A stretch of DNA of 64,000 bases from the IMG/VR virus record IMGVR_UViG_3300043788_000060, positions 46,257 through 110,256 of that record. One strand, given 5' to 3'. The stretch comes from a virus. This document shows positions 517-63,392 of the stretch, one piece after another. Below the pieces are notes generated by a model. The model saw only the letters and a program-made list of their open reading frames with translations. It searched no databases and had not been told where the DNA came from. Every line of letters begins with the position of its first letter. Position 1 is the first letter of the stretch. The translations under genes were made by a program, and so were the position numbers.

Positions 517-1461
517 TTGCGAAGCGACATCCATCCCAAGCGTTGGGCTTTCATAGCCGGTCTAATTGACGGTGATGGAAGTTTCAGTATCCGATATGAC
601 AAAGAGTCCGGATATCAATTAACTGTTAACATATATTCGACATCGAGAAATCTGATGAACTGGTTGGTCAAGCTGATTGGTGGCCAGTATCGAAAGATGC
701 CTACGAAGGGCAATCGTAAACAGCGGTATGCTTGGTATTCAGGGAATTCAGAAATTCCCACCAATGTTGCTCCGTATCTCATTCTCAAGAAAAGTCAGGC
801 AGAGTCTTCCGTTCTATTCTTTAATCTTGGCTCAGAGAGAAATCCTCAAGCTAGAGAAGAATTGATGAGAGACATTCAAAATGCTAATGACTTTTATGTA
901 CCAGCCAATAAAAAAGATGTACAGGATAGTCGAAAAAATCCGATAGAACCCACCAAACTGGATTGGGCCTATCTCTCCGGATTGTTTGATGCTGAGGGGT
1001 CTTTCGGCCTCCAAAGGCGCAGCAAAAAGGGCAACGGTTCCTATACATCTTACGCACGAATTTCAAACACAGATAATCGGGTATTCTTGTGGATCGCGCC
1101 CCGCTTCGGCGGTCGGTTTTCGGTTACTACCAAGGAACACGATAAAGATGAAGGCGCATGGACGTTGTCCGGCTCCATCGGTTTAGAAGGAAGAAAAGAT
1201 CGAGAGAACAAACTCTTGGCTTTGGTTCCTTATCTGGTTGCTAAGAAAGAACGTGCGGTGCTCTTTATGGAGTGGATTAGAAATAACCACCTATTGACCA
1301 AAGAGCAAAAATTGGATTATTTTCTGAGAATGAAGGCGTTGAACAAACGCGGAATCTCTCTAGAGACTAATACGGCGAACTGTCCAGAAAATGGACAGAT
1401 GATAGAGTCCGATCCTGATAGCGATATCAGGTGCGACCCAGCAGTGATGTTGGAGTCCTAA
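517..1461 (+). CDS. Intron-encoded double-motif LAGLIDADG homing endonuclease
   Basis: Motifs FIAGLIDGDG and YLSGLFDAEG. TTG start at 517 follows SD GGAGG at 505-509. The track start at 478 falls inside the promoter. Confidence 0.9.
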   Translation: MRSDIHPKRWAFIAGLIDGDGSFSIRYDKESGYQLTVNIYSTSRNLMNWLVKLIGGQYRKMPTKGNRKQRYAWYSGNSEIPTNVAPYLILKKSQAESSVLFFNLGSERNPQAREELMRDIQNANDFYVPANKKDVQDSRKNPIEPTKLDWAYLSGLFDAEGSFGLQRRSKKGNGSYTSYARISNTDNRVFLWIAPRFGGRFSVTTKEHDKDEGAWTLSGSIGLEGRKDRENKLLALVPYLVAKKERAVLFMEWIRNNHLLTKEQKLDYFLRMKALNKRGISLETNTANCPENGQMIESDPDSDIRCDPAVMLES

Positions 1462-1471
1462 AACACAAATA

Positions 1472-2078
1472 AGGAAGCCCGATCTCCGAATCGAGCACCA
1501 AGATCGTTGCTACCATCGGGCAGTATGCCGATTTTATCAACAGTTCTGACTTGGCTCTCGACGTAGCAATCGACGATCCGGGTTTGCTCCAGAATCTGGC
1601 AAACGAACTCAACTACCGGCTTGCTCTTACCCTCAACTCTCTTGTCCAGATCACAGCGGACTCGGCAGTTGCGGTGGACTCGCTGGTCAACACACAACTG
1701 GCCAACGGCTCGTATCTGACGGCGAACAACCTTCGTTCGGCAGTTCAGTCGCTGGTATCGGTCAACGCACGGCCTCTCGTAAATAACTCCTACGGTGGAA
1801 TCATTCACCCGAACGTGGTACGAGACATCCTCAACGACACGTCTTTCAATGGTCTAACCGACATTGTAAAGCGCGATCCTGAGATGGCGAAGATGCTGTA
1901 CGAACTCCCGAAGAATGATGATGTTATCAAGTTCGCCGGGGTCACGTTCAAGCAAACAAGCACTGCGCCGACGGTGACCATCAGTTCGAACACGTATTAC
2001 AACACTTACATCTTCGGGGACGACGCGATTTTCAGCGTCTTCTTGGGCAAGAATCCCGAGGATGGATCGAAGAACTAT
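1472..2078 (+). CDS. Major capsid protein, exon 2
   Basis: GSPISESSTKIVATIGQYADFINSSDLALDVAIDDP...YGGIIHPNVVRDI...GVTF...KNY, typical N4-gp56-family capsid motifs. Confidence 0.9.
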
Positions 2079-2296
2079 TTGCAAAAAGTAGCTTGAGCGG
2101 GCAACTGCTCTCGAACAGACCGTAAATTCGGTGGAACCCTCACAGAGGCAATACCGAGCCAAGTCGCGAAAGCGGAAGGTGTAGAGACTAGAGACGGTCC
2201 TCCCTATGGGATGATAGTATAGTCCGGACTGCACAGCGATGTGCAGAGGCAAACAGAAATGATTTGCCCGTCCGAATAATGGACAGTAACAAAACG
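2079..2296 (+). ncRNA. Group I intron 2 (218 nt, no ORF)
   Basis: P1 CUAU/GUAG with U2078-G2088; P3 GACCGU/ACGGUC; P4 UUCGGU/ACCGAG; P7 GAGACUA/UAGUCC; P9 GCGA-loop hairpin; terminal G2296. Removal restores the frame (KNY-KLF). Confidence 0.92.
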
Positions 2297-2350
2297 AAAC
2301 TCTTCATCCAGAGTGCGCCTGAGCAGGGAAGTGTAAGTGATCCAGCACGT
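2297..2350 (+). CDS. Major capsid protein, exon 3 (18 codons, KLFIQSAPEQGSVSDPAR)
   Basis: Lies in frame between the terminal G of intron 2 and the P1 splice site of intron 3. Confidence 0.85.
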
Positions 2351-2572
2351 CAACTTTAGGCGTCACTAAGGCGAAATCCTTAGAAGAAAATTCTATCTAA
2401 TTGACTTGGAAGCTGAGAAGCCAACAAGGCGGAACCCAGAAATCGGGACCGTGAGAGACTAAACGATAGAACACCCTTTGGGGTGATGCGATAGTCCGGC
2501 CTCATACGAAATGAAGTATGAGAGGTGTGCAGAAATGACGCACCCCGTCCATTTTAGACGAGTAACATTCCG
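2351..2572 (+). ncRNA. Group I intron 3 (222 nt, no ORF)
   Basis: P1 ACGU/GCGU with U2350-G2360; P3 UUCUAUC/GAUAGAA; P7 GAGACUA/UAGUCC; P9.0 GG/CC; terminal G2572. Confidence 0.92.
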
Positions 2573-2677
2573 CAAATTGGAGGCTGGGTTTCTTACAATG
2601 TACGGTACACAAACACTTTGCGTCCGGGCAGCACAATGACGCTAAGACGTTTGCAATCAGAGACATCCAGTTCATAG
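2573..2677 (+). CDS. Major capsid protein, exon 4
   Basis: QIGGWVSYNVRYTNTLRPGSTMTLRRLQSETSSS-stop; the DP..Q.G.W pattern matches the C-terminus of this capsid family. Confidence 0.85.
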   Translation, partial: QIGGWVSYNVRYTNTLRPGSTMTLRRLQSETSSS

Positions 2678-2726
2678 GAGTCTTTGAAAAAATAGTTTCG
2701 AAATTCTTTACACAAAGCCATTAAAC

Positions 2727-2737
2727 TGTGGTATAAT
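2727..2737 (+). promoter_or_regulatory. Extended -10 promoter upstream of the GIY-YIG gene
   Basis: TGTGGTATAAT in intergenic DNA, with TTTACA upstream. Confidence 0.6.
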
Positions 2738-2817
2738 GTATTTGAGTTTCGAAATTCAAACCGGGAAGGGCGGTACCTCACTACCGCCCAACTCGACTCA
2801 TGTGAGGATGAGAGAAC

Positions 2818-3597
2818 ATGTATTACATCTATTTGGTAACGAATAAAGTCAACGGAAAGATTTATGTTGGTCAGACTGGGTTGACCATAGAGGAACGTTT
2901 TAAAAGTCACATCTGGTCTCGGAACAAGGACGATCATTTTCATGCGGCAATCCGAAAGTATGGAGAAGACGCTTTCGTCATCCAAGAGTTGGGCAAGTTC
3001 GAATCTCTCGAAGAAGCCAACAACGCAGAATCTTTGTGGATAATCTCCCTTCGATCCTACGACAGCAAAATTGGCTACAACACGAAATTTGGTGGCGAAA
3101 ACGGAGGAGCCCCCACCGAAGAAACAAGAATCAAAATCGGATTAGCAAGCAGCCAAAGAGTTCATGCTGCTGAGACTCGGGAAAAGATGCGAAATTCTCA
3201 TCTCAAACGCCAAGGAAAAACTACTTCCCACGAGGGAGTGGGGGTTTTTAAAGGACGTTTTCGGGCGAGAATCAAGATTCACGGAAAAGAAATTTCTTTG
3301 GGACAACACGATACCATTGAAGAGGCGGTTGAGTTTCGAAAAAAGAGTTTAGAACGGCTGAGCCAAATCGGACTAGAAGCTTTCACGGGAGAACTAGAAA
3401 TCTTCCGTAAAGAAGTAAACAAGAAAAGAATCGCAAACCGGCCTCACAGAGGACCTTTATCTGACGAAGAAAAGGAACAGATTAGTATTCGCACCAAGAA
3501 ACGATGGGCGAAGAACTTTAATTGGATGGACGCTCAATTCGTTTCTCCCTTTGTAACGGACGCCCAAACCCAGCAGAACGATCAGGTTGCATCATGA
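2818..3597 (+). CDS. Free-standing GIY-YIG homing endonuclease (NUMOD3-like and AP2-like DNA-binding parts)
   Basis: YIYLVTNKVNGKIYVGQT...GYN; EETRIKI and ETREKMR repeats; FRARIKIHGKEISLGQHDTIEEA. Confidence 0.88.
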   Translation: MYYIYLVTNKVNGKIYVGQTGLTIEERFKSHIWSRNKDDHFHAAIRKYGEDAFVIQELGKFESLEEANNAESLWIISLRSYDSKIGYNTKFGGENGGAPTEETRIKIGLASSQRVHAAETREKMRNSHLKRQGKTTSHEGVGVFKGRFRARIKIHGKEISLGQHDTIEEAVEFRKKSLERLSQIGLEAFTGELEIFRKEVNKKRIANRPHRGPLSDEEKEQISIRTKKRWAKNFNWMDAQFVSPFVTDAQTQQNDQVAS

Positions 3598-3863
3598 GCT
3601 ACGAAACTTGGTTTCACGGCACGAACGAGGATTCGGCTCGTCTAATTATTCAAACCGGATTTCAACCCGGAACATATTTTGCAAAACACATGGAAGACGC
3701 AATCATATTTGGCGGTCCCTGCGTTTTCTGGATTAGAGTAGAATGGGAGCGAAAGAGTTTGGACGGATGGCAGCAGATAAGTTCTAACCATATTCCATCC
3801 AAGGCAATTGTAGGATTTTTCCTTGGAGAAGGTTGGTTCGAAGAAGCCAAGGAGGCCGCATGA
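3594..3863 (+). CDS. Small ADP-ribosyltransferase-fold-like protein
   Basis: WFHGT...IIQTGF...YFA pattern of ART-fold proteins; ATGA overlap with the upstream stop. Confidence 0.5.
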   Translation: MSYETWFHGTNEDSARLIIQTGFQPGTYFAKHMEDAIIFGGPCVFWIRVEWERKSLDGWQQISSNHIPSKAIVGFFLGEGWFEEAKEAA

Positions 3864-4108
3864 TCGCCTGTTGCGGGAGCCGGGCTATTGCGGATTATTG
3901 CAAACGGTGCGGTCGGAATTTAACGGCTCTTGGGCAATACCGAGATTATGTTCACTATGTCCCCGGAACTCAGACCCCATGTTTGACCATCGAAGAAGCC
4001 CTCGGAATGACCGAAGAGGAATTTGACGAGATAATAAATCCTCTTCAAGAAGAACTCGCAAGAAAGCTATCCGAAACCATTGACCTTTTAGTAAAGGATT
4101 TCACCTAA
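3860..4108 (+). CDS. Hypothetical protein with Cys motifs
   Basis: SD AGGAGG, ATGA coupling, CC..CxxC. Confidence 0.6.
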   Translation: MIACCGSRAIADYCKRCGRNLTALGQYRDYVHYVPGTQTPCLTIEEALGMTEEEFDEIINPLQEELARKLSETIDLLVKDFT

Positions 4109-4215
4109 TGCCCGTCTCCCCAGCATCCTCCAGTACCGGCCTGACAACTACCACAGCGGTTTTCTACGGCGCGAAAAAGAAACCCAAGCCGAGGAAGAAG
4201 CCAAAGAAGAAATGA
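4108..4215 (+). CDS. 35-aa peptide with a Lys-rich tail (MPVSPASSSTGLTTTTAVFYGAKKKPKPRKKPKKK)
   Basis: TAATG coupling at the start and ATGA coupling at the end; below the ORF-track cutoff. Confidence 0.55.
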   Translation: MPVSPASSSTGLTTTTAVFYGAKKKPKPRKKPKKK

Positions 4216-4334
4216 CGGCGCTTTGGATAGTCGGGATAAGTTTAGGATGCCTTCTTGTAGCCACAATTGCAGCGGCGGTCGTCATCGGCATTGCTAAACA
4301 AGCTATCAACTATTTCATTGGTCGCTCTCGATGA
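4212..4334 (+). CDS. 40-aa single-TM membrane peptide
   Basis: Coupled start and a long hydrophobic stretch. Confidence 0.5.
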   Translation: MTALWIVGISLGCLLVATIAAAVVIGIAKQAINYFIGRSR

Positions 4335-4447
4335 CGACGATCTAGTAGCCGACGGAACCCTGTCCGAAGAAGAACTGAAAGAAGCGGTCGAGAAATTCAG
4401 GCGGCTGCGGTCGGCGCACTCCGAAGTTTGGGAAGAAGAGGAGTCCG

Positions 4448-4714
4448 ATGTTTAAAAAGGTCCGCCTGAGCCTGCCTGCCTATTATTGCGTTCTTGGACA
4501 GTTCCCGCATTGTGACCAAAGAATTCTTCACGCCCGGGGCGAGTGCCAATATTGTGATAAGCACCCAGACTGGCAAGCTCTTCGGGAGGCGTGGGGAATA
4601 TCCTTTACTGGATACGAACCGGAAGACAAAGAATTGCCCTGTCCGGCGGATTATGCACGAGGAGATTCTCATAAGCTCTGGTATGGAAACGTAGCAGCGA
4701 AGGAGTCCGAATAA
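4448..4714 (+). CDS. Hypothetical Cys/His-rich protein
   Basis: SD GAGGAG; HC..H..CxxC. Confidence 0.65.
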   Translation: MFKKVRLSLPAYYCVLGQFPHCDQRILHARGECQYCDKHPDWQALREAWGISFTGYEPEDKELPCPADYARGDSHKLWYGNVAAKESE

Positions 4715-4950
4715 TGGACAAATTCAACCCATTTCGCAAGCTGGTCCCAAAGTCCAACCGAGTTGTCGGCGCAGTCAAAGCAATCCCGCTGTGGTTCCGG
4801 CCTAACATCAAACCGTGGGGTTACTACTCCGGAAGATTGGAAAGTCGTCCGGATTTCCGGAGACCGAACAGGGTACATCGAATCGAGATTTGTGCAGTAG
4901 TTTTTTACTGCATTTGCAGTAAAATGCCCGAGAGGGCCAAAACCAACTGA
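4714..4950 (+). CDS. Hypothetical basic protein
   Basis: TAATG coupling supplied by a copy of the 15-bp site. Confidence 0.4.
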   Translation: MDKFNPFRKLVPKSNRVVGAVKAIPLWFRPNIKPWGYYSGRLESRPDFRRPNRVHRIEICAVVFYCICSKMPERAKTN

Positions 4951-4995
4951 CTTTAATTCTGAGCACCTAGTCAGTGTGCTGTTCAAGGAGAACAC

Positions 4996-5940
4996 ATGAT
5001 GTACACGCAGGGATACATAGCATCTTTGAAGGTCGGAGGTAAAATCCTCCGGGAATCAAACGGAACAGTTTCGCTCCCATTTGGGTCTGAATATTCCGTG
5101 CTCCTCAAAAACAAACTCTCCCGTCGGGCTCAAGTCAAAGTCGAAGTAGACGGCCAAGACGCGACCGAGGGAACCAAGCTGATCCTGCCCGCAAACGGAT
5201 CGCTGGAGCTAGAACGCTTTATCAAGTCTGGCAACCTAAAAGCGGGCAACAAGTTCAAGTTTATCGAACGGACTTCGAAGATCGAAGAACACCGGGGAAT
5301 CAAAGAAGACGACGGCTTGATCCGAATCGAATTCTGGGCTGAGAAAGAAGTCGTAGATGTACCGGTTGTCCGGCATCATTATTACGATGATTGGGTTCCA
5401 GTCCGCAGATATTACTGGGATCGCCCGTGGTATGATCCGTACTACCCGACATGGCCTCAACCGACGATTACTTGGAATTCCAATTCCGGTATCCAAACTT
5501 CCTGCTATAATACAAGCGGAAGTTTAGGAGAGGCACAAAGCGATAATCTGGGCTCGGCGCAAAATTTTTCTGGCAGTTTGCAAAAATCTTCTGCGAGACA
5601 GACCAGAAGTCTACACCCGCAAGCGTCTAGCGGCATCACTCGCGATTCAGGTCAGCAAGTTCATGCTCAGAACTGCATGATGGCGGAAACCAGTTTCAAC
5701 GACGCAGGAATCACGGTCCCGGGAAGTCACTCAAACCAAGAGTTCCAAAGCACTTACGGGTTTGAAACCGAATCGAACAGTCACGTGATTGTACTTCAGT
5801 TGCGGGGTGTGGTTGGGGACAAACCAGTCGTAGTTCCGGTTACCGTAGACCACAAGCCGGTCTGCCCAACCTGCGGAACTACAAACAAGGCGCAAAATAA
5901 ATTCTGCAAAGAATGCGGAACGGCCTTGCAATTAGTCTAA
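4996..5940 (+). CDS. Hypothetical phage protein with a beta-rich N-domain and C-terminal double zinc ribbon
   Basis: SD AAGGAG; 314 aa; CPTCG..NKFCKECG. Confidence 0.8.
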   Translation: MMYTQGYIASLKVGGKILRESNGTVSLPFGSEYSVLLKNKLSRRAQVKVEVDGQDATEGTKLILPANGSLELERFIKSGNLKAGNKFKFIERTSKIEEHRGIKEDDGLIRIEFWAEKEVVDVPVVRHHYYDDWVPVRRYYWDRPWYDPYYPTWPQPTITWNSNSGIQTSCYNTSGSLGEAQSDNLGSAQNFSGSLQKSSARQTRSLHPQASSGITRDSGQQVHAQNCMMAETSFNDAGITVPGSHSNQEFQSTYGFETESNSHVIVLQLRGVVGDKPVVVPVTVDHKPVCPTCGTTNKAQNKFCKECGTALQLV

Positions 5941-5953
5941 AGTGTGGTATAAT
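5926..5953 (+). promoter_or_regulatory. Sigma70-type promoter in front of the large ncRNA candidate
   Basis: TTGCAA-16 nt-TATAAT with extended -10. Confidence 0.7.
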
Positions 5954-5959
5954 GTATTT

Positions 5960-6750
5960 GTTAGGTAGCGGGTTTCACCGGCCAAGGCGGAGTCTTTAAG
6001 CGAGAACAAAAACGGGAATGACTCTAACCGGTAGAGTGACCTTGGTTTGCAGATAGCAACATAACCGCCCAGAGCGTGATTATGCTGCCTATAAATTTCG
6101 AGTTTGCGTAAATCGAGGGATGCTGGCTACTGAGGAGCGAAGGTAGCTGGATCGGGAACTTCCCAAACCACCCCGATCTTTGCCCTCCTTGCTCAGAAAT
6201 GACGATTTACGCAATGAAGGTGAGGGCCACGGTTGGTCATACGTCCAAACTGTTGGGTAGGTACTGGATGGGACAGCCTCCAACAGCCCGTGGCCTGATT
6301 CCCAAAGGACAACATGATTGATTCAGAGTTTGGTTGGTGGCGTAGTTGGATTAGTGAGCTTCTTTCCTAGATCGATCTGGGAAAGATGAACCAGAGGTAG
6401 TTTCAGTTCAGCCCTCTCACCCCCGGAAGTCATGAGCCGGACTCGGGTGCTTATTAGAACTGAAGCGGGGATGGGGCTCGGGTTTGGCCTCAACGCATAC
6501 CCACGGGGTTCATTACCCAACAGGCCCAACATTTTAGGTTTGACCCTCTTCGGAGGAGAACAGCAACAAGCGGAACTTTAGTTCACACAAACTTGAGTTT
6601 TGACGCATCCCCCTCGCCCGGTACCTGCTTGTTTGGGGTGGCCCCTGAATTCCTAGGAATTCAGTAATCCGGTGGTCAAATGGTGGTGACACCTACCAGC
6701 CTGTGTGGGCAAAGTGGTGTGACTCTAGCATTCTCAGAGTAGAAGCTTAA
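5960..6750 (+). ncRNA. Large (~790 nt) structured ncRNA candidate, GOLLD/ROOL size class
   Basis: No + strand ORF of 60 aa or more in a gene-dense genome; own promoter; long-range helices 5962-5969/6084-6091, 6104-6115/6203-6214, 6225-6232/6288-6295, 6402-6409/6457-6464, 6357-6363/6741-6747. Confidence 0.7.
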
Positions 6751-6782
6751 TTTCGTCCAGATAATGGACTAGGGAGAAAACG

Positions 6783-6938
6783 ATGGCACCAAAGCATCCG
6801 GGGTTCAAAGCAGTTCAATCGAAGATCGCAGGAGAAGGCTATAGCAAGAAAGCAGCCGGAGCGATCCTCGCAAACGCGACACGAAATGCCAGCAAGTCTG
6901 CGAAGGCAAAGAACCCCAAACTCCGCAAAGTCAAGTAG
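6783..6938 (+). CDS. 51-aa very basic protein (MAPKHPGFKAVQSKIA...KNPKLRKVK)
   Basis: SD GGGAG; abuts the next gene; Lys/Ala-rich. Confidence 0.7.
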   Translation: MAPKHPGFKAVQSKIAGEGYSKKAAGAILANATRNASKSAKAKNPKLRKVK

Positions 6939-7166
6939 ATGGAAGAATCTCTTCAAATCCACCACAGCGAGCAGATTCACTGGGCTTCCTACGATCCGGA
7001 CACCCAGCAATTGAACCTGACGCTCAACGACCGGAGAAAGCACGGGTATTCGCCGGTCCCCCAAAAGGTGGTTAACGGATTTGTCCGCGCTAAATCCCAC
7101 GGGGATTTTTTCCACAAGAACATCAGAAACAACCCGAATTACCGATACCACGGAAAGGTAGAATGA
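6939..7166 (+). CDS. KTSC-domain protein
   Basis: S..I..ASYD...L.L....Y..VP...F..A.S.G.FF..NIR pattern. Confidence 0.75.
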   Translation: MEESLQIHHSEQIHWASYDPDTQQLNLTLNDRRKHGYSPVPQKVVNGFVRAKSHGDFFHKNIRNNPNYRYHGKVE

Positions 7167-7492
7167 ACATGAAACTGGCTTTACTTTCAGTGTTCCTAGC
7201 GTTACCACTTTTGCTTCCGGCGCAAGTCGTGGTTTCTCCCGCCCCGGAAACGACCGTGACCTTGTCTGGAGCGGGCACAATTTCCTCCTACAGTATTTTG
7301 GTTTCAACGGGGGACCCATGTGCGCTATACGGGGGAAAACAACTCAAGGATGGAACCTGTCAAACGACCTTTGATTTTCATATGGGTCCGGACAATTCCG
7401 TTTGTCTCTTGCATTTTTCTCTAAAACTCTGGCACGATCCGAAGGTAATTTGCACTTGGACTCCCAACACCTCGAAAGGAAACACCAAATGA
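7163..7492 (+). CDS. Exported protein (signal peptide, four Cys)
   Basis: MKLALLSVFLALPLLLPA-Q. Confidence 0.7.
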   Translation: MNMKLALLSVFLALPLLLPAQVVVSPAPETTVTLSGAGTISSYSILVSTGDPCALYGGKQLKDGTCQTTFDFHMGPDNSVCLLHFSLKLWHDPKVICTWTPNTSKGNTK

Positions 7493-7800
7493 AGAAAGTA
7501 TCCGGCCTACTGGCGGTACTGTTCGCCGCAACACTCGTAGCACAAACACCGCTTCCGCCTAAGATTCCGGTGGAAGTTCTCAAACAGTTTTATGCGGCAG
7601 ACGCCGCCCAGCAAAGGGCCCAGCGCGAATTGGATTCAGCGCAGAGAGATATCCAATCAGCAAACGACGGCTGGAAGCAGGCTGTTAGTTCTCTACAAAA
7701 GATTTGTGGAGATAAATTTGCTCTGAAACAGGATACAGTCAACACCGACCCGTATTGTGTGGCCAAACCTGAACCAGAGAAACCATCTGAAAAGAAATAA
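7489..7800 (+). CDS. Exported coiled-coil protein
   Basis: MKKVSGLLAVLFAATLVA-Q; ATGA coupling; one Cys pair. Confidence 0.7.
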   Translation: MKKVSGLLAVLFAATLVAQTPLPPKIPVEVLKQFYAADAAQQRAQRELDSAQRDIQSANDGWKQAVSSLQKICGDKFALKQDTVNTDPYCVAKPEPEKPSEKK

Positions 7801-7805
7801 GCTCG

Positions 7806-7876
7806 GCTCGGCGCTTTATCCTCCTTTCTCGCCGAGTCACCGGGGACGGAATAATTCCTCCTTCCTCCGTCCCCGG
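7806..7876 (+). promoter_or_regulatory. Two tandem hairpins with CCUCCUU (anti-SD) loops
   Basis: Stems 7806-7813/7830-7837 and 7840-7850/7866-7876; both loops contain TCCTCCTT. Confidence 0.55.
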
Positions 7877-7899
7877 AGTTCTTCAATCGAAAGGCTTTT

Positions 7900-8265
7900 A
7901 TGACAAACTGGCGCACTTTCCAACCGGTGTCGAAAGAAGAACACCTGATTCTCATTAACGAAATTCAACTTCTCCGAAAGGAAATTAAAGAACTCATGAG
8001 CACCGTACCTACTGGACTAGCAGCACTTACCCAAGCCGATGCCGATCTCGCGGCAGCAATCACAGCTAACACCACCGAAACCACCGCAGTTGTTGCGGCA
8101 ATTGCAGCACTTAGCGCACAGCTTACTGCGCTGAATAGCGAGGACCCGCAGGTAGCGACTATCGCCGCCGATCTCGAAACCAAAGTTGCTGCCCTGACAG
8201 CGAATACAACCGCGTTGACAGCCGCTATTGCTCCGCCCGCATCGACAACCCCAGCAGCTTCCTAA
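7900..8265 (+). CDS. Ala/Thr-rich coiled-coil protein
   Basis: ORF with heptad pattern; start uncertain (7900 or 7996). Confidence 0.65.
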   Translation: MTNWRTFQPVSKEEHLILINEIQLLRKEIKELMSTVPTGLAALTQADADLAAAITANTTETTAVVAAIAALSAQLTALNSEDPQVATIAADLETKVAALTANTTALTAAIAPPASTTPAAS

Positions 8266-8267
8266 CC

Positions 8268-8393
8268 ATGCGCCGTCTACTGTTTGACCTTTCGCTTCCG
8301 TTCGTTATCTGTTGGGGATTACTTATCTGGTTTATCGCCAACTGCGGAAATGGGGGCGATTGGCAAACATGGATGGAAGACCATCTTTCGTAG
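8268..8393 (+). CDS. 41-aa membrane peptide
   Basis: MRRLLFDLSLPFVICWGLLIWFIANC..., starts 2 nt after the upstream stop. Confidence 0.45.
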   Translation: MRRLLFDLSLPFVICWGLLIWFIANCGNGGDWQTWMEDHLS

Positions 8394-8660
8394 TTTGCGC
8401 GGGGAGCCTAAATACACCGGCCAAGACTCTGAGAGGGCCGGACGCGCAAAGTTTTAATGTCCGAATAATGGACAGCAGGTTGCCTTTCACAGAGGAGTCG
8501 AACCGCTGGTTTACTAGCCCTAATCTGGCGGCAAGGTTACTTTAACAGGTTGTTCCAAGGAGCAGGACTCGCCGCAGACGATCTCTACGGAGGAGCAGTT
8601 TCTGAAGCGCAACCGGGCAACGTCATCGTAATATCCGAAACGAATCGCGACCTGCCCTTT
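8394..8660 (+). ncRNA. Structured RNA candidate(s)
   Basis: Helices 8394-8401/8443-8450, 8417-8422/8436-8441 and closing stem 8475-8483/8647-8655 followed by a U-run; no convincing ORF. Confidence 0.4.
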
Positions 8661-8923
8661 TTACTTCCATGCCAAATCATATCAAAAATCTCGGTATATG
8701 TGCTCTTTGCAGACAAGAGGTATTGTCAGTAATGGACCTAAAGGAGCATGTCATGGGAGATGTTAATAAAAATGGTTTGATTGGCTGGTCCGAAGGGAAA
8801 GATTTATCTCCTCTTTGAAAGCAACTTTGGTGCAGCAAATGTATTGCTCGCATCCACCCACGGATATGTATCTGTCCACATTGCAAAGCCGCCAAACTAT
8901 CCGAATAATGGACTAAGGAACTC

Positions 8924-9394
8924 ATGCCAATCGATCCGCTCGATAGTATCCACATCACCAAAAACTTCCCAGACCACGTCCTCTTAGATATTGCTCGCAA
9001 CGGTTCCGCCCAGCAAGATTACCGGTTACTCGCTGTTGAAATCCTGAACGCCCGCAAGTCTCCCAAACTACAGCATCCGGACATACAATTTCTGGTTCGT
9101 GATTTGGAAATCGAGTTGGAAGGAATTGTGTTTGAGCACCCGGCCCCCTCGGGACCGGGGCCGCTGACTGCTGGTGTGACGACCGCGACTATGTTTGCGG
9201 ACGTGCCGATTCAAAACGAGTTTACGGGGTTTGAGTCCATCGATATGGACTCCTTGCGTGAGGATGGAATTCTTGTAGATGCTGTAACAACGGAGGTCAT
9301 CTCTGACATTCCGCCGACAGAGCCCGAAGCCGTTTCGACCAAGCCGAAGAGAAATCCAAAGCCACCAAAGGATAAACCCGATGCCGCCGAATGA
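8924..9394 (+). CDS. Hypothetical protein
   Basis: SD AAGGA; 156 aa. Confidence 0.7.
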   Translation: MPIDPLDSIHITKNFPDHVLLDIARNGSAQQDYRLLAVEILNARKSPKLQHPDIQFLVRDLEIELEGIVFEHPAPSGPGPLTAGVTTATMFADVPIQNEFTGFESIDMDSLREDGILVDAVTTEVISDIPPTEPEAVSTKPKRNPKPPKDKPDAAE

Positions 9395-10007: not shown

Positions 10008-10052
10008 TTCACAAACCCGCTCTGCGGGCATAATCAAACAAAGGAAACAATC

Positions 10053-10733: not shown

Positions 10734-10777
10734 AGTAACCGAGTTTCCGGCCTCGACAAAACCGGATTGTCCGAATA

Positions 10778-11822: not shown

Positions 11823-11836
11823 ACTAGGAGCCCGAA

Positions 11837-12439: not shown

Positions 12440-12449
12440 CTGAGGATAT

Positions 12450-12863: not shown

Positions 12864-12864
12864 C

Positions 12865-13880: not shown

Positions 13881-13887
13881 GATTGGA

Positions 13888-41886: not shown

Positions 41887-41904
41887 CTGTGTCCATTATT
41901 CGGA

Positions 41905-42667: not shown

Positions 42668-42705
42668 ATTATCCGTCCATTATTCGGACAAATCGTGTGA
42701 AAAGG

Positions 42706-47784: not shown

Positions 47785-47786
47785 GG

Positions 47787-52770: not shown

Positions 52771-54691
52771 CCGGTGCCTCCTCGTAGTTGGATTCCAATT
52801 GCTCGAACGAAGCGAACTCCCCAAAACAGGTGATGTAAGTAGCAGACGCCCCGGTACCCATCGACCGGCCCTTCAGAAGTTTCACCAGTGTTTTGTCTTC
52901 GTACACACCTTTGGACAGTGTGGGGTCCTCTGATTTATTCAGATCACGATGTAGGACAATTGCAGCGTTTGCCGCGTCTCCCCACGCTCCCGAACCCTTG
53001 AAATCCGAGATGTGGAGGTGCTTTCCTTTGGTCTGCTGGGTAGCCTTTCTCGGTTGGCCCACATTGATGAAAATCACTTTGTAGACCTGAGCTATTTGTT
53101 TGATCCGGGTCATAGCCGTCTGCTGAATCTTGGTTTCGTTGTCCATTCCGGTAGTGAGATGGTGGAAGTGGTCAAGAATTACAATATCGGCCCCCAATCT
53201 GCGGACAGCCGCTTCAATTACATCCAGAACCTCGTTGATGTCCGTCAGCAGGGGGTTGTTGCCCACATAGTAATTCACCCCGTCCAGTTCGCTTGCCGCC
53301 AGTTTCCGGTCTTCAGCGGTCAGGAAGTTCCGATCTCTTCGCAGGGCCTGAGCCGCAATCATTGTGGCAATTTCGGAAGGTCGCATCTCGACTTGATAAT
53401 TCAACACTGTCTTCCCGTATTTCCGGGCATTAAACAGCGATAGCTGAACCGTCCACATAGTTTTGCCCATACCGGTGTTGGTAGAACCCACTCCAAGCAC
53501 ATCTTCTGGTAAGACGTTAACCATTTTGTCAGCCGACGGCCAAGGGAATCTGAGCCTGTCGGGGTGCTCTGAAAGCACCGGTACGTCCCCATTTTCAAGA
53601 ACACTCTGAATGGAATACACATCCGGCATGGGTTGGAGTTTAGCTTTGCTGGTTAGCTCATTAACCAACGCCCGAAACTTATCTAAATCCCTTGAGCAGT
53701 GCTCCAAGAAGGTTTGATTCCCATCCTTCATCAAAGAGGGCCAAAATAGCAGGTAAGTCCTTTCCGACAACTCTTTCCAAAGTTTGGACATATACCCCGC
53801 ACCGGTCGAGTCCGTGTCGCCAGCTAGAATCACTTCGCTGGCCTGCATCAGTTTGTCTTTCATTTCGGGGGTCAGCTTGGTGCCTCCCGAGGGCACACTG
53901 ACGGCCCGAAAACCAGCAGCCTCTAGGATACATGCGTCGAATTCTCCTTCTGTGAGATACACCGGGGAAAATGGATCGATGGTTTCGGTGTTGAACATCG
54001 CGGTTGCCATGCCGGGCTGTCTGGCGAACCCTCCGGGTTTTTTCCGAATAATGGACCGGTATTTGACACTGATAATTTTGTCTCCTTCGATGCAAGGAAA
54101 AGCAATCCAGCCTTTGTCGGCAATATCGGCTCCGGCTTCCCCGGCAAGGTTGCCTAAGTTCTGGACAAATCCTAGCTTCAACTGTCGCGCAGTTTTTAGC
54201 TCGATTCCCCGTTCCTGCTGAAGCCACTCTATTGCCCGGGGCGTTAAAGCTAACCCAATCTCTAATTTTTCCCAAGCAGACAGGGGAATGGTCTTGTATG
54301 TTTTCGGTTCGGTTACCGGCTTAAAAACCGATTCGACTTTTTCCTTGGCCTCGCCCCATGATCCGAGTTCTTTCTTCACTTTCTCGACCGCCGTTTTGAA
54401 ATCGCAGGAGTCCATTATCTGGACAAGCTGAAAAATGTTTCCCGCTTCTCCGCAACCAAAGCACTGGTAACGCATGTCGGGATAAATTGTAAAGCTGGGA
54501 GTTTTCTCCTGATGCAGGCAGCAACATCCGGAATACTTATCCCCAACTTTCTTGAGCCGGAGATATTGGCTGTAGACCCGCAAGCATCCGATATCCGATT
54601 TGATTTGATCTAAATCTTCCACATTAAGTCCAGTCCGAATATCCCAAAATGTTGATTCGCCTGATTTGATGTTCCCAGTCTTCGGTTTCAT
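52742..54691 (-). CDS. Bifunctional DNA primase-helicase (CHC2 zinc finger, TOPRIM, SF4 helicase)
   Basis: C.LH.EKTPSF..CFGC; TEGEFDA; DTD..G; TGMGKT; ILDH; FKGSG. The true start may be near 54622. Confidence 0.9.
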   Translation of the reverse strand: MKPKTGNIKSGESTFWDIRTGLNVEDLDQIKSDIGCLRVYSQYLRLKKVGDKYSGCCCLHQEKTPSFTIYPDMRYQCFGCGEAGNIFQLVQIMDSCDFKTAVEKVKKELGSWGEAKEKVESVFKPVTEPKTYKTIPLSAWEKLEIGLALTPRAIEWLQQERGIELKTARQLKLGFVQNLGNLAGEAGADIADKGWIAFPCIEGDKIISVKYRSIIRKKPGGFARQPGMATAMFNTETIDPFSPVYLTEGEFDACILEAAGFRAVSVPSGGTKLTPEMKDKLMQASEVILAGDTDSTGAGYMSKLWKELSERTYLLFWPSLMKDGNQTFLEHCSRDLDKFRALVNELTSKAKLQPMPDVYSIQSVLENGDVPVLSEHPDRLRFPWPSADKMVNVLPEDVLGVGSTNTGMGKTMWTVQLSLFNARKYGKTVLNYQVEMRPSEIATMIAAQALRRDRNFLTAEDRKLAASELDGVNYYVGNNPLLTDINEVLDVIEAAVRRLGADIVILDHFHHLTTGMDNETKIQQTAMTRIKQIAQVYKVIFINVGQPRKATQQTKGKHLHISDFKGSGAWGDAANAAIVLHRDLNKSEDPTLSKGVYEDKTLVKLLKGRSMGTGASATYITCFGEFASFEQLESNYEEAPGENISLQSS

Positions 54692-58270: not shown

Positions 58271-58281
58271 ATTATACCACA
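58271..58281 (-). promoter_or_regulatory. Extended -10 promoter with a 15-bp site over its -35 region
   Basis: TGTGGTATAAT; site copy at 58287-58301. Confidence 0.6.
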
Positions 58282-58291
58282 ATTCCGTCCA

Positions 58292-58921
58292 TTATCCGGA
58301 CAATGGGTCAAAAATTTCCTCCTCCGCCTGTTTCTTTTTAGCGGCCTCTCTTTCCCGCTCTGCTTCTTCCTGCAACTTTCTGGCCATATCTTCCCTCAAA
58401 ACCCGGGCGTCGTCGGCTTCCTGCTTTCGGCGTCGGGCTGAGTAGCACAGGCTGTCCACTATCTGGACAAACTTATTAGGTAAAAATTGCACGTTTTTGG
58501 GGTCATTCAGGTCCTGCTCCTCAAGCCATGCGGAGAATACGGATTTAATCTCCGCAGCCGGGAACTCTCGGAGGACCTCCGCCAACCTCGCCCGTTGTTT
58601 GTCCTGAAACGCTATTTTGCCCTCAGAGGCGTAGGTAAGTTCTCGGGCAAGGGAAACTACCTCTGGGTCCTTGGCGGCGGCTGTAATCGAATTTGTGGGG
58701 CTAGACAGCCTACCGTGGGCGACGTGGGTATACATCGAAACTGCTCCTTGAGGGAAATCGTCTCCCTGCATCTCTTCCAGCCACTCGGTAAAATCTCTAA
58801 CAACAGCCCCGGTTGAGTGGGCAATCGCCAGACTCTGAATTTCCTCCCACGTGCTCTGGTAGCCGCCAGCTTTAATTCCGAACCCGCCGCATACCGCCTG
58901 AAGTTCTTTCTTGATTTTCAT
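58292..58921 (-). CDS. Hypothetical protein, possibly replication-associated
   Basis: SD AGGAG; follows the initiator-like gene. Confidence 0.65.
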   Translation of the reverse strand: MKIKKELQAVCGGFGIKAGGYQSTWEEIQSLAIAHSTGAVVRDFTEWLEEMQGDDFPQGAVSMYTHVAHGRLSSPTNSITAAAKDPEVVSLARELTYASEGKIAFQDKQRARLAEVLREFPAAEIKSVFSAWLEEQDLNDPKNVQFLPNKFVQIVDSLCYSARRRKQEADDARVLREDMARKLQEEAEREREAAKKKQAEEEIFDPLSG

Positions 58922-59399: not shown

Positions 59400-59480
59400 G
59401 TCTCTCCGTCCATTATTCGGACAACTCCTGTGACTAGTTAGAGATAGTCAAAATGGTCTTAAACGGCTATCTATAGATTG

Positions 59481-59672: not shown

Positions 59673-59887
59673 GCCTTCTCCTTAGACCACCAAAGTGTGC
59701 CGAGTTCTCCGGTCCCGCAGGTGAATGTTATCGGTTTACATTTTCTGTACCGCACGGTCGAACCCGGTGGAATGGATGTCGTATATCGATAACGGTAAGA
59801 AACTTCGTCGCGGAAAAATCGTCCGAATAATGGACTAGCCGCCAACCCCGCCAGCATCCCGAAGAAACCACGTCTGGTGGTCGTCAT
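59669..59887 (-). CDS. Small protein with a twin-arginine-like N-terminus
   Basis: MTTTRRGFFGMLAGLAA; SD GAGGT. Confidence 0.55.
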   Translation of the reverse strand: MTTTRRGFFGMLAGLAASPLFGRFFRDEVSYRYRYTTSIPPGSTVRYRKCKPITFTCGTGELGTLWWSKEKA

Positions 59888-60648: not shown

Positions 60649-61811
60649 TCCACATCTCCTTCCAGTTCCTTGAGCCAGTCGTCCTCTTCTTCCTTCTTGG
60701 GCTTGGCTCCGGTCTTTATGAGTAACTGATCCACCAAGTCCGGGCGATTTAGGCATAGACCACGCATCCGGCAGTTCGGACACTTGGTGTTCGGGTAGCG
60801 GACGCCGCCAGTTTTAGGAAAGAATCCTGTTTCGACCGCTCGTTTGATCTCAATCAGCTTGTTGCCTATAAGCTGTCCGACTACCGGTACTTCTTTTTCT
60901 GGTACATCGGCGGTCAGAAATTGCAGGCGCGTTTTTGTTATATCAGATTTACTTACAGAACACAGTTTACCATCACAGACGTACTTAGCGATTACCTGCT
61001 CCTTCTTTTCCGTTGCCCCCTTTCCCGAGATGGTGTCAAGTTTTTCGTCCATTATTCGGACGGTTTCTTCTGTGCCCAAAAGAATCAACTCCATTTTATC
61101 ATCTTTCGCGGCGGAAAATTTGGCGACCGTCAGGGAAGTCCCAGCTTTGAAATCCAAAGTGTCGTTCAGGAGTGTTACCGAATCTCCCTTTTTGAAACTG
61201 GGCCGACCCTTGATCAGCCAGAGGAAGGCCACTGTTCGGATTCCTGTGGTCCAAGCATAATCTTTGAGTTGCGGGTCTAGAGCTACCATGCCCGGAGTTG
61301 AATCCAACGGCGACTTGGCTGTTTTTACGTCCACAATCAAACGTGATCCGTCGTCTAAAGTAGACAGGATGTCGATGTATGAAGTGAAGCCTAGACCAGC
61401 CAGATCAGTTCCCGGCCACAAGTCCTTCCGGTAATTCAATTGGAACTTTGGGTTCTTGATTGGCAAAGTGGGCAGGAATATCTCGTAGAGGCGCAGAAGA
61501 TCAGCGCCCATTCCAAGTAGGTCAAACCACGACCCCTCTTGTTCCGTGAAAACCAAAGTAACATCTTTGAACTTTAACCACAGGCGCTTGAACTCATCAA
61601 CCCCTTCGCCCGGTTTCAGCCCATTCTCGTGATAGAACTGGATCGCCGTTTCGACACAATTTCCGAATTGGAAAGCGGCCCGCTTCTCCTTATCTCGGTA
61701 ACCTTCGATGCGACTGAGACGGAACAGTTCCGGACAGTAGTCATAGTCAGAGATTGCCGAGTAAGATAGGTCATTTACCTCTCTGCCCGAAGCCGATTTA
61801 TACAGACTCAT
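60645..61811 (-). CDS. PD-(D/E)XK exonuclease (Cas4/RecB-like)
   Basis: LSYS....YCP; IDIL..IVDVKT; QL..Y; C-terminal CPNC...C. Confidence 0.85.
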   Translation of the reverse strand: MSLYKSASGREVNDLSYSAISDYDYCPELFRLSRIEGYRDKEKRAAFQFGNCVETAIQFYHENGLKPGEGVDEFKRLWLKFKDVTLVFTEQEGSWFDLLGMGADLLRLYEIFLPTLPIKNPKFQLNYRKDLWPGTDLAGLGFTSYIDILSTLDDGSRLIVDVKTAKSPLDSTPGMVALDPQLKDYAWTTGIRTVAFLWLIKGRPSFKKGDSVTLLNDTLDFKAGTSLTVAKFSAAKDDKMELILLGTEETVRIMDEKLDTISGKGATEKKEQVIAKYVCDGKLCSVSKSDITKTRLQFLTADVPEKEVPVVGQLIGNKLIEIKRAVETGFFPKTGGVRYPNTKCPNCRMRGLCLNRPDLVDQLLIKTGAKPKKEEEDDWLKELEGDVE

Positions 61812-61978
61812 TTCCTACCCCCATAAAACCAATCCTGTAGCTTCCGCATAAGGGCTTCTCCGTCCTCTTTTTCTACCCGAATCGTCCAGTCGTGGTCCGC
61901 GTTTCCGTCAGTAAAATCCACACCTAGAACGCCGGGTCTAAGCTGCGGGTCGTATTCGTATATCGTGACGGTTTTCAT
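61808..61978 (-). CDS. Hypothetical protein
   Basis: Coupled ORF. Confidence 0.55.
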   Translation of the reverse strand: MKTVTIYEYDPQLRPGVLGVDFTDGNADHDWTIRVEKEDGEALMRKLQDWFYGGRK

Positions 61979-62244
61979 CTCCAAACCTTTTTCCAAAAAT
62001 CTTTGATTGGTTGGTACCACGGTTCGTCCACAGTAGAGACTCGCATCAAAACAACATGTAGCTGATCTTCCTTCTTCAGACGACCAAAATCTACTCCGGA
62101 CAAGTTGTCCAGAAATGTGTGCGATCTGCCGTCTTTGCTTCTCACGTTGAGAATGATTGTTGGGTCCCGATAGGAGATAAATGGTTCATTTCCCTTGATC
62201 ACACTTATGGTTTGGGAGAGATTGTCGAATCGTAGGCGTTTCAT
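61975..62244 (-). CDS. Hypothetical protein
   Basis: SD GAGGAGG. Confidence 0.6.
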   Translation of the reverse strand: MKRLRFDNLSQTISVIKGNEPFISYRDPTIILNVRSKDGRSHTFLDNLSGVDFGRLKKEDQLHVVLMRVSTVDEPWYQPIKDFWKKVWR

Positions 62245-62744
62245 TTCTTCCTCCTCGTTTTCGGCGTGTCCAGATAATGGATGAATTCGTGGCGGGCCCA
62301 GAACAGGTTTTTGTCACTCGCCCACGTAGATAGGAGTTTTCCTACGTGGGGCCAATAAGCATTATACCATCCCCATTCGCCTTTGTTGATTACAGAATTA
62401 GAAAAGGCTAGTCGGTAGGACAAATCACCCCACTGGGGTTCTGACGTTCTTTTTACCGTCGCGGGCTTCGAGATGCCGCCGCATGTCTGGCACACCCGTC
62501 GTTCTTTGTATCCGTCAATTGAGATGTTGTCGAATGTTTGCATCACGTGTTTCTTCGGGCACACATACCCAAAACAGTATCCGATTACATCTTTGGGTTT
62601 AGTAGACAGATCGGGCGGTGGGTCTTTGGGCGGCACGATAACGGTCTCCTTTGGGTTGTCACACGAAATGATTTCGCCGGGCGTTCCTTTTGCCTCGACC
62701 GCATAAGGCTCTGGCGGTTTAATTTTTCGGTTCCACCGAGTCAT
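62241..62744 (-). CDS. Hypothetical zinc-ribbon protein
   Basis: C.KKH..CQTCG; SD GGAGG. Confidence 0.65.
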   Translation of the reverse strand: MTRWNRKIKPPEPYAVEAKGTPGEIISCDNPKETVIVPPKDPPPDLSTKPKDVIGYCFGYVCPKKHVMQTFDNISIDGYKERRVCQTCGGISKPATVKRTSEPQWGDLSYRLAFSNSVINKGEWGWYNAYWPHVGKLLSTWASDKNLFWARHEFIHYLDTPKTRRKK

Positions 62745-62983
62745 TCTGATACCTCCATTTGCACGGGATGATACAAATCCTCAAATATGTACTGGGTCAT
62801 CAAAATATCCGCCCCGGCGGCAATACGCTGTCGTTCCTCGTCGTCCAGCTTCCATCTGGAGAGAACAGGTTTTCCCGGGTCTTTCAGGATCAGCGCGGGC
62901 AGCGGTAAATATTCCTTCTGGTTTTTGGCGAAGATTACTTCTTTATCTTGGTAACCGTCCAGAACTGGCGAAATGGGTTTCAT
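62741..62983 (-). CDS. Hypothetical protein
   Basis: AKNQKEYLPLPA..SRWKL..EER; start placed at MKPISP. Confidence 0.65.
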   Translation of the reverse strand: MKPISPVLDGYQDKEVIFAKNQKEYLPLPALILKDPGKPVLSRWKLDDEERQRIAAGADILMTQYIFEDLYHPVQMEVSE

Positions 62984-63156
62984 TTCATGTGCTCCTTCTC
63001 GATAGCCTCGTTGAGGATGTTGATCGCCTCTTGCCGACCGGATAGGACACCACGGAGCCACTCAGAGTAGATGATCTCCTTGGTCCCTATGCTGTGCCTC
63101 TTGAAATACCCTTCCAAATAGGTTCGGGCGAAGATGAGGGCATCGAGTCTGTCCAT
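62980..63156 (-). CDS. Hypothetical protein (58 aa)
   Basis: Start supplied by the TAATG in a 15-bp site; ATGA coupling at the end. Confidence 0.55.
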   Translation of the reverse strand: MDRLDALIFARTYLEGYFKRHSIGTKEIIYSEWLRGVLSGRQEAINILNEAIEKEHMK

Positions 63157-63392
63157 TATTTGGACTCCCTTGCTATGATTCTCATAGCTTCCTTCTCTAA
63201 TTCCCGAAGCATCCCTTGGAACTTTCCTTCGTGCAGGGGATTACCTTCGTCATCTTCTTCCTCGGCGTAATCAAGAATCCCCTCGAAATCGCCCGCCTGT
63301 CGGGCGAAGGCCGCGCAGCGTTCGATGATGTCAATACTTGATCCTCGCAGGACCTGATGTTCGTCGGTATAGTGATGTAAACTAACATTCAT
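63156..63392 (-). CDS. Hypothetical protein
   Basis: ORF in operon context. Confidence 0.6.
   Translation of the reverse strand: MNVSLHHYTDEHQVLRGSSIDIIERCAAFARQAGDFEGILDYAEEEDDEGNPLHEGKFQGMLRELEKEAMRIIARESK

Follow-up and report, generated by a model that had tools for sequence, protein, structure and literature searches.

A 15-bp word, GTCCGAATAATGGAC, recurs throughout a 64,000-nt stretch of viral DNA (the window; bases 46257–110256 of the 110,256-bp IMG/VR record IMGVR_UViG_3300043788_000060, which is rated complete by CheckV) and throughout the rest of that record. The word is abundant, two-fold symmetric and specific to the phage, it is deeply conserved at the level of DNA, and it is separate from the phage's promoter class. 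We see about an even chance that it is a site in duplex DNA for a homodimeric phage protein with a genome-wide, orientation-independent role, the best candidate being a 236-aa protein encoded directly downstream of the sliding-clamp gene; the binding of a protein to the word, the identity of the binder and the consequence of binding are what we infer here.

In the window, 14 exact copies of the word and 30 copies with at most two mismatches were counted, compared with means of 0.00 and 0.16 in dinucleotide shuffles, in agreement with the 14 exact and about 16 near-exact copies reported in an earlier note on this DNA. The whole record holds 26 exact copies and 63 with at most two mismatches, and a reversed-pattern control returned 0. 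The core pattern [G/T]TCC-N4-AATGGA[C/A] defines approximately 70 unique sites with a mean spacing of 1.58 kb over the 110,256 bp, and the system is thus genome-wide, as that note had proposed. AATGGAC is present 70 times in the record and is preceded by.TCC-N4 in 56 of these cases, meaning that the arms occur together, and GTCC-N7-GGAC is found at 56 sites where approximately 1.5 would be expected. In a position table of the 63 sites the signal was confined to positions −2 to +16, with no second element within 40–55 bp on either side; pooling 289 sites of six genomes revealed no partner element within 60 bp, and the words found near the site in that range were Shine–Dalgarno (SD)-like downstream and A/T-rich upstream only. 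The spacing of sites was slightly regular, with a coefficient of variation of 0.70–0.86 compared with 0.98 under random placement. A host-derived motif was ruled out by a 6.1-Mb metagenome-assembled genome (MAG) of a candidate host type, such as the earlier note had proposed to search: the word is at chance level there (21 matches versus 14 for the reversed control) and is therefore phage-specific.

An exact-word scan of IMG/VR matched more than 100 stretches, many of them with several copies. Three near-complete relatives (G001, G003 and G004), with approximately 68–70% identity to this genome (G000) over only 15–20 kb, carry 66–79 sites each. The preferred N4 is genome-specific: GAAT in this genome, AGAT in G004, GGAT, AGGT, GGGT or GGTT in G003, and ATAA, GAAA, ATTT or ATTA in G001, where eight sites are the full palindrome GTCCATTNAATGGAC. 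Among more distant relatives, ordered by portal identity, the word changes in grades, from GTCC to TTCC arms, from AAT to CG inner bases and from N7 to N6 spacing. G006 (portal 71%) has 31 copies of TTCCAGATAATGGAA, a TTCC...GGAA form; the form [G/T]TCCG-N5-CGGA[C/A] is present at 9 sites in G009 (portal 57%) and at 15 sites in a MAG contig (52%); in G007 (portal 51%) the word is a perfect 14-bp palindrome, TTCCATTAATGGAA, with 31 exact copies in 62 kb; and G008 (portal 48%), which is complete with terminal repeats, has approximately 21 copies of GTCC-RGAA-AATGGAC. A search of 185,579 species genomes yielded no prophage copy, its sole match being one 50.7-kb MAG contig that is possibly a free phage contig. 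This contig (C120; JAOAPI010000069.1, locus L237/G010) is binned with a Candidatus Sulfotelmatobacter MAG; besides a portal of 52% identity it encodes a homologue of the 236-aa protein, and 15 matches to [G/T]TCC-N7-GGA[C/A] lie on it. Because a portal relative sits on a contig of that MAG, the host of this phage is probably an acidobacterium, and the contig points to acidobacteria as the host range of the clade.

To compare sites within genes, we projected them through protein alignments of orthologous genes (site coordinates are window positions unless marked as genome positions, and gene calls come from a crude caller). Sites occupy shared codon positions in two or three relatives in the genes for the RecT-like protein, DNA polymerase, the 236-aa protein, the clamp, the primase–helicase, the exonuclease and a 209-aa protein, and an anti-oriented site in a 267-aa gene keeps that orientation in each of the four genomes compared. 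In the window, the exact site in the exonuclease gene (61047–61061, minus strand) lies at the same codon in three relatives, with GAAT, ATAA, GGAT or AGGT as its N4; those in the sliding-clamp gene (51301–51315, minus) and in the gene for the candidate reader itself (50384–50398, minus, exact) are likewise shared at the same codon with three relatives, the latter having an inverted centre in one of them; and those in the primase–helicase gene (54410–54424, minus) and the 209-aa gene (58454–58468, minus, GTCCAGATAGTGGAC) are shared with two. The anti-oriented intragenic site at 32143–32157 (minus) has an identical codon position and orientation in three relatives. Among the fixed motif columns of eight orthologous sites inside genes, 79 of 88 were invariant, compared with 141 of 480 columns in the 30-bp flanks, and N4 switches to the variant of each genome with the encoded residues following, for example VRIMD, VHKMD and VQVMD. 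The earlier note had argued, from copies read in several reading frames, that selection acts on the nucleic acid and not on the protein, and had counted a lack of conserved synonymous positions at these sites in related phages among the results that would refute its reading. The argument held up against that check: the two stop-free frames are both in use among co-oriented copies (VRIMD and xPNNG), anti-oriented copies are read in all three, and orthologous sites are kept while neighbouring codons and encoded residues change. Selection at the intragenic sites acts on the DNA rather than on the protein.

The symmetry of the site extends into its flanks. In seven genomes, G is nearly absent at position −1 and C at +1, Y is preferred at −2 and R at +2, and Watson–Crick pairing between the flanks is at or below expectation. 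Both outer bases have changed together in G006 and G007, the arm centres lie approximately 11 bp apart, and the site has the form of the 13–16-bp palindromes of ParB/KorB/Noc-type dimer sites, with half-sites Y-H-GTCC(ATT). Mirror-image flanks that do not pair, the joint change of the outer bases and the full palindromes point to a symmetric protein on duplex DNA and not to a hairpin. Such a hairpin, in RNA or in extruded single-stranded DNA, would have a 4–5-bp stem with a pentaloop or heptaloop and would serve as a signal for processing, stability or protein binding. It would agree with the variation at positions 5 and 11, which always keeps pairing (G·U, A–U or G–C), with the joint change of the outer pair from G–C to U–A in G006 and G007, and with the many sites just 5′ of an SD or 1–4 nt 5′ of tRNA genes. 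But the RNA stem is worth only −3 to −5 kcal/mol, the right half of the site is invariant with variation confined to the left inner part, and the sole joint change is that of the outer pair; moreover, the flank preferences are symmetric and show no covariation by pairing, anti-oriented sites, which would give another loop, are conserved, and the orientation bias described below is near its compositional expectation. The RNA-hairpin option listed in the earlier note therefore appears very unlikely.

Several more specific identities were considered and set aside. A λ boxB/nut-like hairpin, for which the 15-nt stem-loop shape would be suitable, was ruled out by the copy number, the flank symmetry and the conserved anti-oriented copies. 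The arms are too short for the core site of a tyrosine recombinase and there is no 6–8-bp overlap region, and that reading was also rejected because as many as 70 sites pointing both ways would scramble the genome. Recognition by primase (GTC on both strands) was speculative and found no support. The sequence GNNYRWWWWWYRNNC, which we take to represent a Fis-like consensus, fits the word of this genome and not the G-rich centres of G003.

The sites are concentrated where the coding cost is low. Coding sequence makes up 86% of the genome, yet 38 of the 71 matches to the pattern (approximately 54%) are not wholly within a called gene; approximately 46% of sites are fully intragenic, and these counts are approximate because of the crude gene caller. 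The word contains TAATG. At 11 sites of the record the upstream gene ends on this TAA, and 5 of these also supply the ATG start of the next gene; among the genomes compared, TAA serves as a stop at 5–11 sites per genome and ATG as a start at 2–6. In the window both functions are combined at 46184–46198 (minus, exact), which gives the stop of gene 46189–46380 and the start of gene 45995–46189, and at 63151–63165 (minus); the exact site at 4705–4719 (plus) supplies the stop of the open reading frame (ORF) 4448–4714. Other sites end 0–4 nt ahead of an SD, including the reverse-oriented ones at genome 5394 and 72328, and two lie 1–4 nt ahead of tRNA genes. The four copies that the earlier note had placed just before a ribosome-binding site or start codon were found 8–13 nt ahead of start codons: 6755–6769 (plus, GTCCAGATAATGGAC), with ATG 6783 located 13 nt further on and GGGAG between; 26072–26086 (minus, exact; genome 72328), which is reverse-oriented, 9 nt ahead of the plus-strand ATG 26096; the exact intergenic site 42675–42689 (minus), directly ahead of a start codon; and 59408–59422 (minus, exact), 8 nt from ATG 59399 and abutted by GGAG. 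Two further sites are placed similarly, at 8899–8913 (plus, ATCC..GGAC), 10 nt upstream of ATG 8924, and at 10769–10783 (plus, exact), 12 nt upstream of ATG 10796, the latter at a position common to three relatives.

Identical words at gene boundaries that include TAATG could also act as a recombination or cassette-junction signal, promoting the gain and loss of genes between related phages. The use of the word as a stop and start, the small lineage-specific ORFs flanked by copies (for example, at genome 1451 and 1612) and the repeat-mediated insertions and deletions reported for the repeats of Cluster O mycobacteriophages (PMC4351075) are in line with this proposal, but it leaves unexplained the sites deep in essential genes, the symmetric flanks and the homogenisation of N4 within each genome. 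As the function under selection it seems extremely improbable, and any effect of this kind is probably a side effect.

Orientation relative to transcription is biased and only weakly so. With local genes, 22 of 30 copies are co-oriented in the window, where the earlier note had counted 24, and the figure is 52 of 69 (75%) in the genome and 62–75% in five relatives. The coding strand is A-rich (A 0.24–0.30, T 0.20–0.25), as is the motif centre, and a simple composition model predicts 56–66% co-orientation; an excess over this reached significance in this genome alone (p=0.015) and was absent from G001, G003, G004 and G008. Anti-oriented sites number 17–30 per genome (25–38%), and some are conserved in that orientation. 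Two of them, at 13931–13945 (minus), close to the start of a 2295-aa gene, and at 18233–18247 (minus), within it, lie in the interval from 10.8 to 26 kb that had been described as free of copies. The flip of the bias at the convergence of transcription at 41.9 kb, where a site lies at 41891–41905 (minus) at the 3′ end of gene 41905–42273 (minus), is real as the earlier note stated and is mostly what strand composition and the use of TAA and ATG at junctions would lead one to expect. A caution of wider relevance is that strand composition alone can produce an orientation bias of A-rich motifs in phage genomes.

These features bear on the analogy to the stoperators of mycobacteriophage L5 that the earlier note had drawn, in which the immunity repressor of a temperate phage would stop elongating RNA polymerase at oriented sites. 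L5 stoperators are asymmetric 13-mers that are bound by a monomer, strictly oriented with transcription and functional one way only (PMC9283540). The likeness is that L5 also has more than 20 short sites over its genome, which often lie in short intergenic gaps and in some cases in promoters; here too the sites are many, dispersed and enriched at short gene junctions (38 of 71 outside called genes), one covers the −35 region of a strong promoter, and an Xer-type tyrosine recombinase conserved in relatives would allow a temperate or plasmid-like state. The present site, however, is symmetric, including its flanks and, in G007, as a perfect palindrome, and its bias (62–75% versus 56–66% expected) is weak and mostly compositional, whereas that in L5 is 'striking' and functionally required (PMC9283540). 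Nearly half of the sites are intragenic, and the search for prophage copies in 185,579 species genomes found none. The analogy thus did not survive, and we regard a stoperator-like system as distinctly unlikely.

The phage has a promoter class of its own that is separate from the 15-bp word. With the word masked, the sole other over-represented word outside repeated coding sequence was TGTGGTATAATG; TGGTATAAT has 17 exact copies in the genome, every one directed toward the gene that it precedes, including a copy at genome 74180 that serves a minus-strand gene inside a plus-strand block. Copies of the extended −10 element TGTGGTATAATG(T) in the window are at 481, 2729, 5945, 27924 (minus), 48798 (minus), 58279 (minus), 62369 (minus) and 63822 (minus), with 9 more upstream, and several of these promoters have a TTGACA-like −35 element. 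This is the main promoter class of the phage and is probably read by the primary sigma factor of the host. The AATAAT within the 15-bp word was considered as a sigma-70-type −10 element and rejected, as it is not kept in the G007 word and a separate extended −10 class exists. Two 15-bp sites, one in each orientation, span about −37 to −22 of strong promoters (genome 104543 and 7598). The first of these, at 58287–58301 (minus), overlaps the upstream part of the TGGTATAAT extended −10 promoter at 58271–58279 (minus), covering approximately −37 to −23 and so its −35 region, as the earlier note had seen, and its TAA ends gene 58292–58921.

A further alternative is that the 15-bp sites are promoters for host RNA polymerase carrying a phage sigma factor of the extracytoplasmic function (ECF) type, by analogy to gp36 of phiEco32. 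The phage encodes such a factor, a 166-aa protein (48762–49262, minus) with the two domains of an ECF-type sigma (Pfam Sigma70_r4, 6e-11; full-length Foldseek matches to SigH, SigE, SigL and SigW), to which none of the over-represented words found with the 15-bp word masked could be assigned as a promoter. The sigma factor and the word co-occur in the same genomes, the invariant AATGGA is similar to AATGTA, the gp36 element at −14 to −9 (PMC12276001, PMC4281155), and all 14 sites of the late block are co-oriented. Against a promoter, however, 25–38% of sites oppose transcription, some of them conservedly so; the site is two-fold symmetric, and a perfect palindrome in G007; there is no partner −35 or −10 element within 60 bp; and about half of the sites are intragenic. 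In addition, because the SD begins 0–4 nt after the site wherever one precedes a gene, a transcript start 6–8 nt downstream would remove that SD. The sigma factor is retained in relatives but evolves fast (27–36% identity), and its sigma-4 recognition helix is hypervariable among genomes with an identical motif. We judge the 166-aa protein an unlikely reader, and sigma-dependent promoters an unlikely explanation of the word. The phiEco32/SU10 system is alike in having an ECF-like phage sigma and promoters with tAATGTATA, where AATGGA is invariant here (PMC12276001, PMC4281155); it differs in having six promoters, all oriented, versus approximately 70 symmetric sites in both orientations, and gp36 has no detectable sequence relation to the 166-aa protein, for which tblastn against phages gave one weak match. 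A 133-aa gene directly after the sigma gene (48360–48761, minus) could encode an anti-sigma factor.

For a symmetric duplex site, the best candidate reader is the 236-aa protein (50114–50824, minus), which was found in every motif-bearing genome examined and is predicted to have a helix–turn–helix (HTH) domain like those of ParB, Spo0J and Noc, without their CTPase domain. It is one of three HTH proteins that the earlier note had proposed to test for binding; a phage-encoded binder remains plausible, with the gene at 50114 as the best candidate and that at 48762 as an unlikely one. The AlphaFold model has a pLDDT of 79. In VIA-align, nine ParB/Spo0J/Noc domains ranked at the top (Z 6.8–7.9, root-mean-square deviation 2.9–4.5 Å over 97–119 residues), and in a search of 48,161 representative chains Spo0J ranked first and ParB second (Z 7.0 and 6.9). 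The CTPase domain ParB_N (PF02195) was not found in a six-frame search of the entire record (E ≤ 1), with a positive control in 11 of 14 genomes, and clamp-sliding is therefore not expected; there was no ParA or KorA-type partner among the Pfam matches listed, although no search was aimed at them. A two-copy model of the protein gave an ipSAE of 0.71, compared with 0.00 for the best control, a value reached by 20 of 30 same-chain-pair structures and 1 of 23 single-chain structures in a benchmark. Contacts agreed to at least 93% between homodimer runs with a partner pLDDT of at least 78, and the modelled subunits meet through their N- and C-terminal helices, leaving residues ~60–170 including the HTH free. 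The modelling supports a homodimer as a prediction.

The putative recognition helix of the 236-aa protein varies with the site. It reads R79-S-Q-x-Y-A in all lineages with AATGGAC, including G008 at 33% protein identity; K79-S-Q-x-Y-A in both lineages with TTCC...GGAA, G006 and G007, the latter at 28% protein identity; and R-T-x-x-Y-H in G009 and the MAG contig, where the inner bases of the site are CG and not AAT (TCCG-N5-CGGA). In a scan of specificity positions across 12 core proteins, the 236-aa protein had the most identical changes shared by G006 and G007 (4), all of them conservative. ParB has an arginine, R173, where its recognition helix begins; this residue contacts a guanine and is known to switch specificity (PMC7383237), and R79 may be its equivalent.

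On this reading of the word as a dimer site, each subunit would recognize one half-site, Y-(not G)-GTCC-(ATT), the two lying in neighbouring major grooves approximately 11 bp apart, and approximately 70 sites would cover the chromosome about every 1.5 kb. The sites would be placed where they cost least, in the gaps between a stop codon and the next ribosome-binding site, at times providing the TAA stop and the ATG start themselves, and inside long genes where such gaps are absent. KorB-like occlusion might be expected at the two promoters with a covered −35 region, and the remaining sites would have a marking, organising or roadblock role across the genome that is independent of orientation. 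Slightly regular spacing, placement at low coding cost, retention in long essential genes and indifference to orientation fit a role that depends on the density of bound protein along the chromosome: the protein might organise the phage DNA, mark it, act as a roadblock, or recruit factors for replication or late transcription. A more specific version, which we put forward tentatively and consider doubtful, is that a ParB-fold homodimer lacking the CTPase and encoded beside the clamp marks and organises its own chromosome every 1.5 kb, rather than forming an operator network, and has co-evolved with its site. The protein could then recruit the replication or late-transcription machinery, or tell phage from host DNA, and the changes R79K with G>T and S80T/A84H with AAT>CG in the recognition helix would reflect the co-evolution.

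Several results weigh against a symmetric dimer site read by the 236-aa protein. One half-site is systematically degenerate with a genome-specific N4, and the arms of the G007 site are 1 bp closer (N7 to N6), neither of which a symmetric dimer explains. Co-orientation in this genome, at 75%, exceeds the compositional expectation (p=0.015), and in the late block (34.8–57 kb of the genome) 14 of 14 sites are co-oriented. The protein has no sequence match in Pfam, PHROG or PDB, its Foldseek matches to the DNA-binding domains of ParB, Spo0J, Noc and KorB are weak (E ~1), and the fold match is middling, Z values below 8 being commonplace for helical proteins by the aligner's own caveat. The co-variation of residues and sites amounts to approximately 2+1 lineage events and is not strict, as C120 and locus L238 have R79 together with a mixed G/T outer base. 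Last, only 2 of the 17 strong promoters overlap a 15-bp site, and simple operator control is for this reason not the main role.

The closest mechanistic models are KorB with its operator OB and Noc with its binding sites (NBS); RK2 has twelve OB operators, versus approximately 70 sites here, and Noc has about 70 binding sites. The closest published case is the dispersed dyad repeats of Cluster O mycobacteriophages, dense arrays of one palindrome for which no reader or function has been established, and the array described here has every feature by which such repeats are described. Corndog and its relatives carry 34 copies of a 17-bp repeat, TGTTCGGNNNCCGAACA, a third to half of them intragenic, and the authors inferred a dimeric binder and doubted a simple transcriptional role (PMC4351075). 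Shared with the present array are more than 30 copies per genome, invariant inverted arms around an A/T-rich, slightly orientation-biased centre, positions common to relatives and absence of the repeat from hosts, and those phages, too, have genes for a beta clamp and a ParB-like protein (PMC4351075). The phage group, host and sequence are, however, unrelated. The present array has twice the number of sites, with one half-site degenerate and a spacer particular to each genome; its word also serves as a stop/start junction, and it is conserved across genomes that diverge much further. KorB on the IncP-1 plasmid RK2 offers a palindrome repeated over a mobile element whose reader, an HTH dimer of the ParB family, is a global regulator, with certain OB sites in promoters and others distant (PMC11790492, PMC13768133), but KorB requires a CTPase N-domain to slide and KorA to lock, and this phage has no ParB_N. 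Noc–NBS and ParB–parS likewise place palindromes around a chromosome that are read with two-fold symmetry by a ParB-type DNA-binding domain (PMC7383237, PMC8429893), and the recognition-helix arginine of ParB (R173) as a specificity switch resembles the R79/K79 pattern; these are cellular proteins with a CTPase domain, however, and Noc also has a membrane helix. With approximately 70 sites per genome, a single conserved candidate whose helix changes in step and graded changes of the word, this clade is an unusually good test case for such arrays.

The remaining sites of the window complete the array. On the plus strand, 1382–1396 (GTCCAGAAAATGGAC) lies within ORF 517–1461, the exact sites 2270–2284 and 8459–8473 lie outside called genes and in an intergenic gap, respectively, and 30480–30494 (GTCC..GGAA) lies within a 1054-aa gene. 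Three copies, at 35060–35074 (exact), 36134–36148 (ATCC..GGAC) and 39275–39289 (exact), all plus, are held by the gene for a 2322-aa protein at the end of the structural block (34870–41838, plus), which has DUF7178, phrog_3170 and phrog_3842 matches and approximately 860–900 residues common to relatives. In the minus-strand region, the sites 47716–47730 (GTCCGAAAAATGGAC) and 49538–49552 (exact) are on the minus strand, and anti-oriented plus-strand sites are at 43403–43417 (GTCT..GGAC) and 43755–43769 (weak, TTCC..GGAT), both matches within two mismatches, at 54042–54056 in the primase–helicase gene, at 59821–59835 (exact, intergenic) and at 62268–62282 (GTCCAGATAATGGAT, retained in a relative).

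In genome coordinates, genes are arranged in a minus-strand block from 1 to 22.7 kb, a plus-strand block from 23 to 88.1 kb and a minus-strand block from 88.1 to 110 kb. The minus-strand replication module encodes a primase–helicase, a family A DNA polymerase, the sliding clamp and a clamp loader, together with a single-stranded-DNA-binding protein, a RecT-like protein, an exonuclease and a UvrD-like helicase. In Pfam the portal has a match to the SU10_portal family, a further point of likeness to the phiEco32/SU10 system, and megablast of window positions 1–20000 against cultured phages gave no match that would indicate a close cultured relative. Neither the T7-like RNA polymerase family (PF00940) nor the control run with it gave a match. 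A MazZ-like dATP/dGTP diphosphohydrolase N-domain is present in the record and PurZ (adenylosuccinate synthetase family, PF00709) is absent, with a positive control in 14 of 14, so that a 2-aminoadenine (Z) genome is not indicated. Upstream of the window, 31 tRNA genes lie at genome 28751–34746 on the plus strand (locus L010), and the Xer-type tyrosine recombinase lies at genome ~15181–16285 (minus; locus L009), where the gene caller probably cut the gene short; it is conserved in G001, G003, G004 and G006 and may reflect a temperate or plasmid-like state, or a role in resolving dimers. Genes for homing-type nucleases (HNH, Endonuclease VII, LAGLIDADG and GIY-YIG) are scattered, for example at window 49271–49645 (minus) and at 2–646 (minus) of locus L009. 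In the same locus, a UvrD/PcrA-type helicase is present as two ORFs (340 aa and 269 aa; genome 647–3188), which are split by three small lineage-specific ORFs flanked by copies of the 15-bp word and are adjacent in G001.

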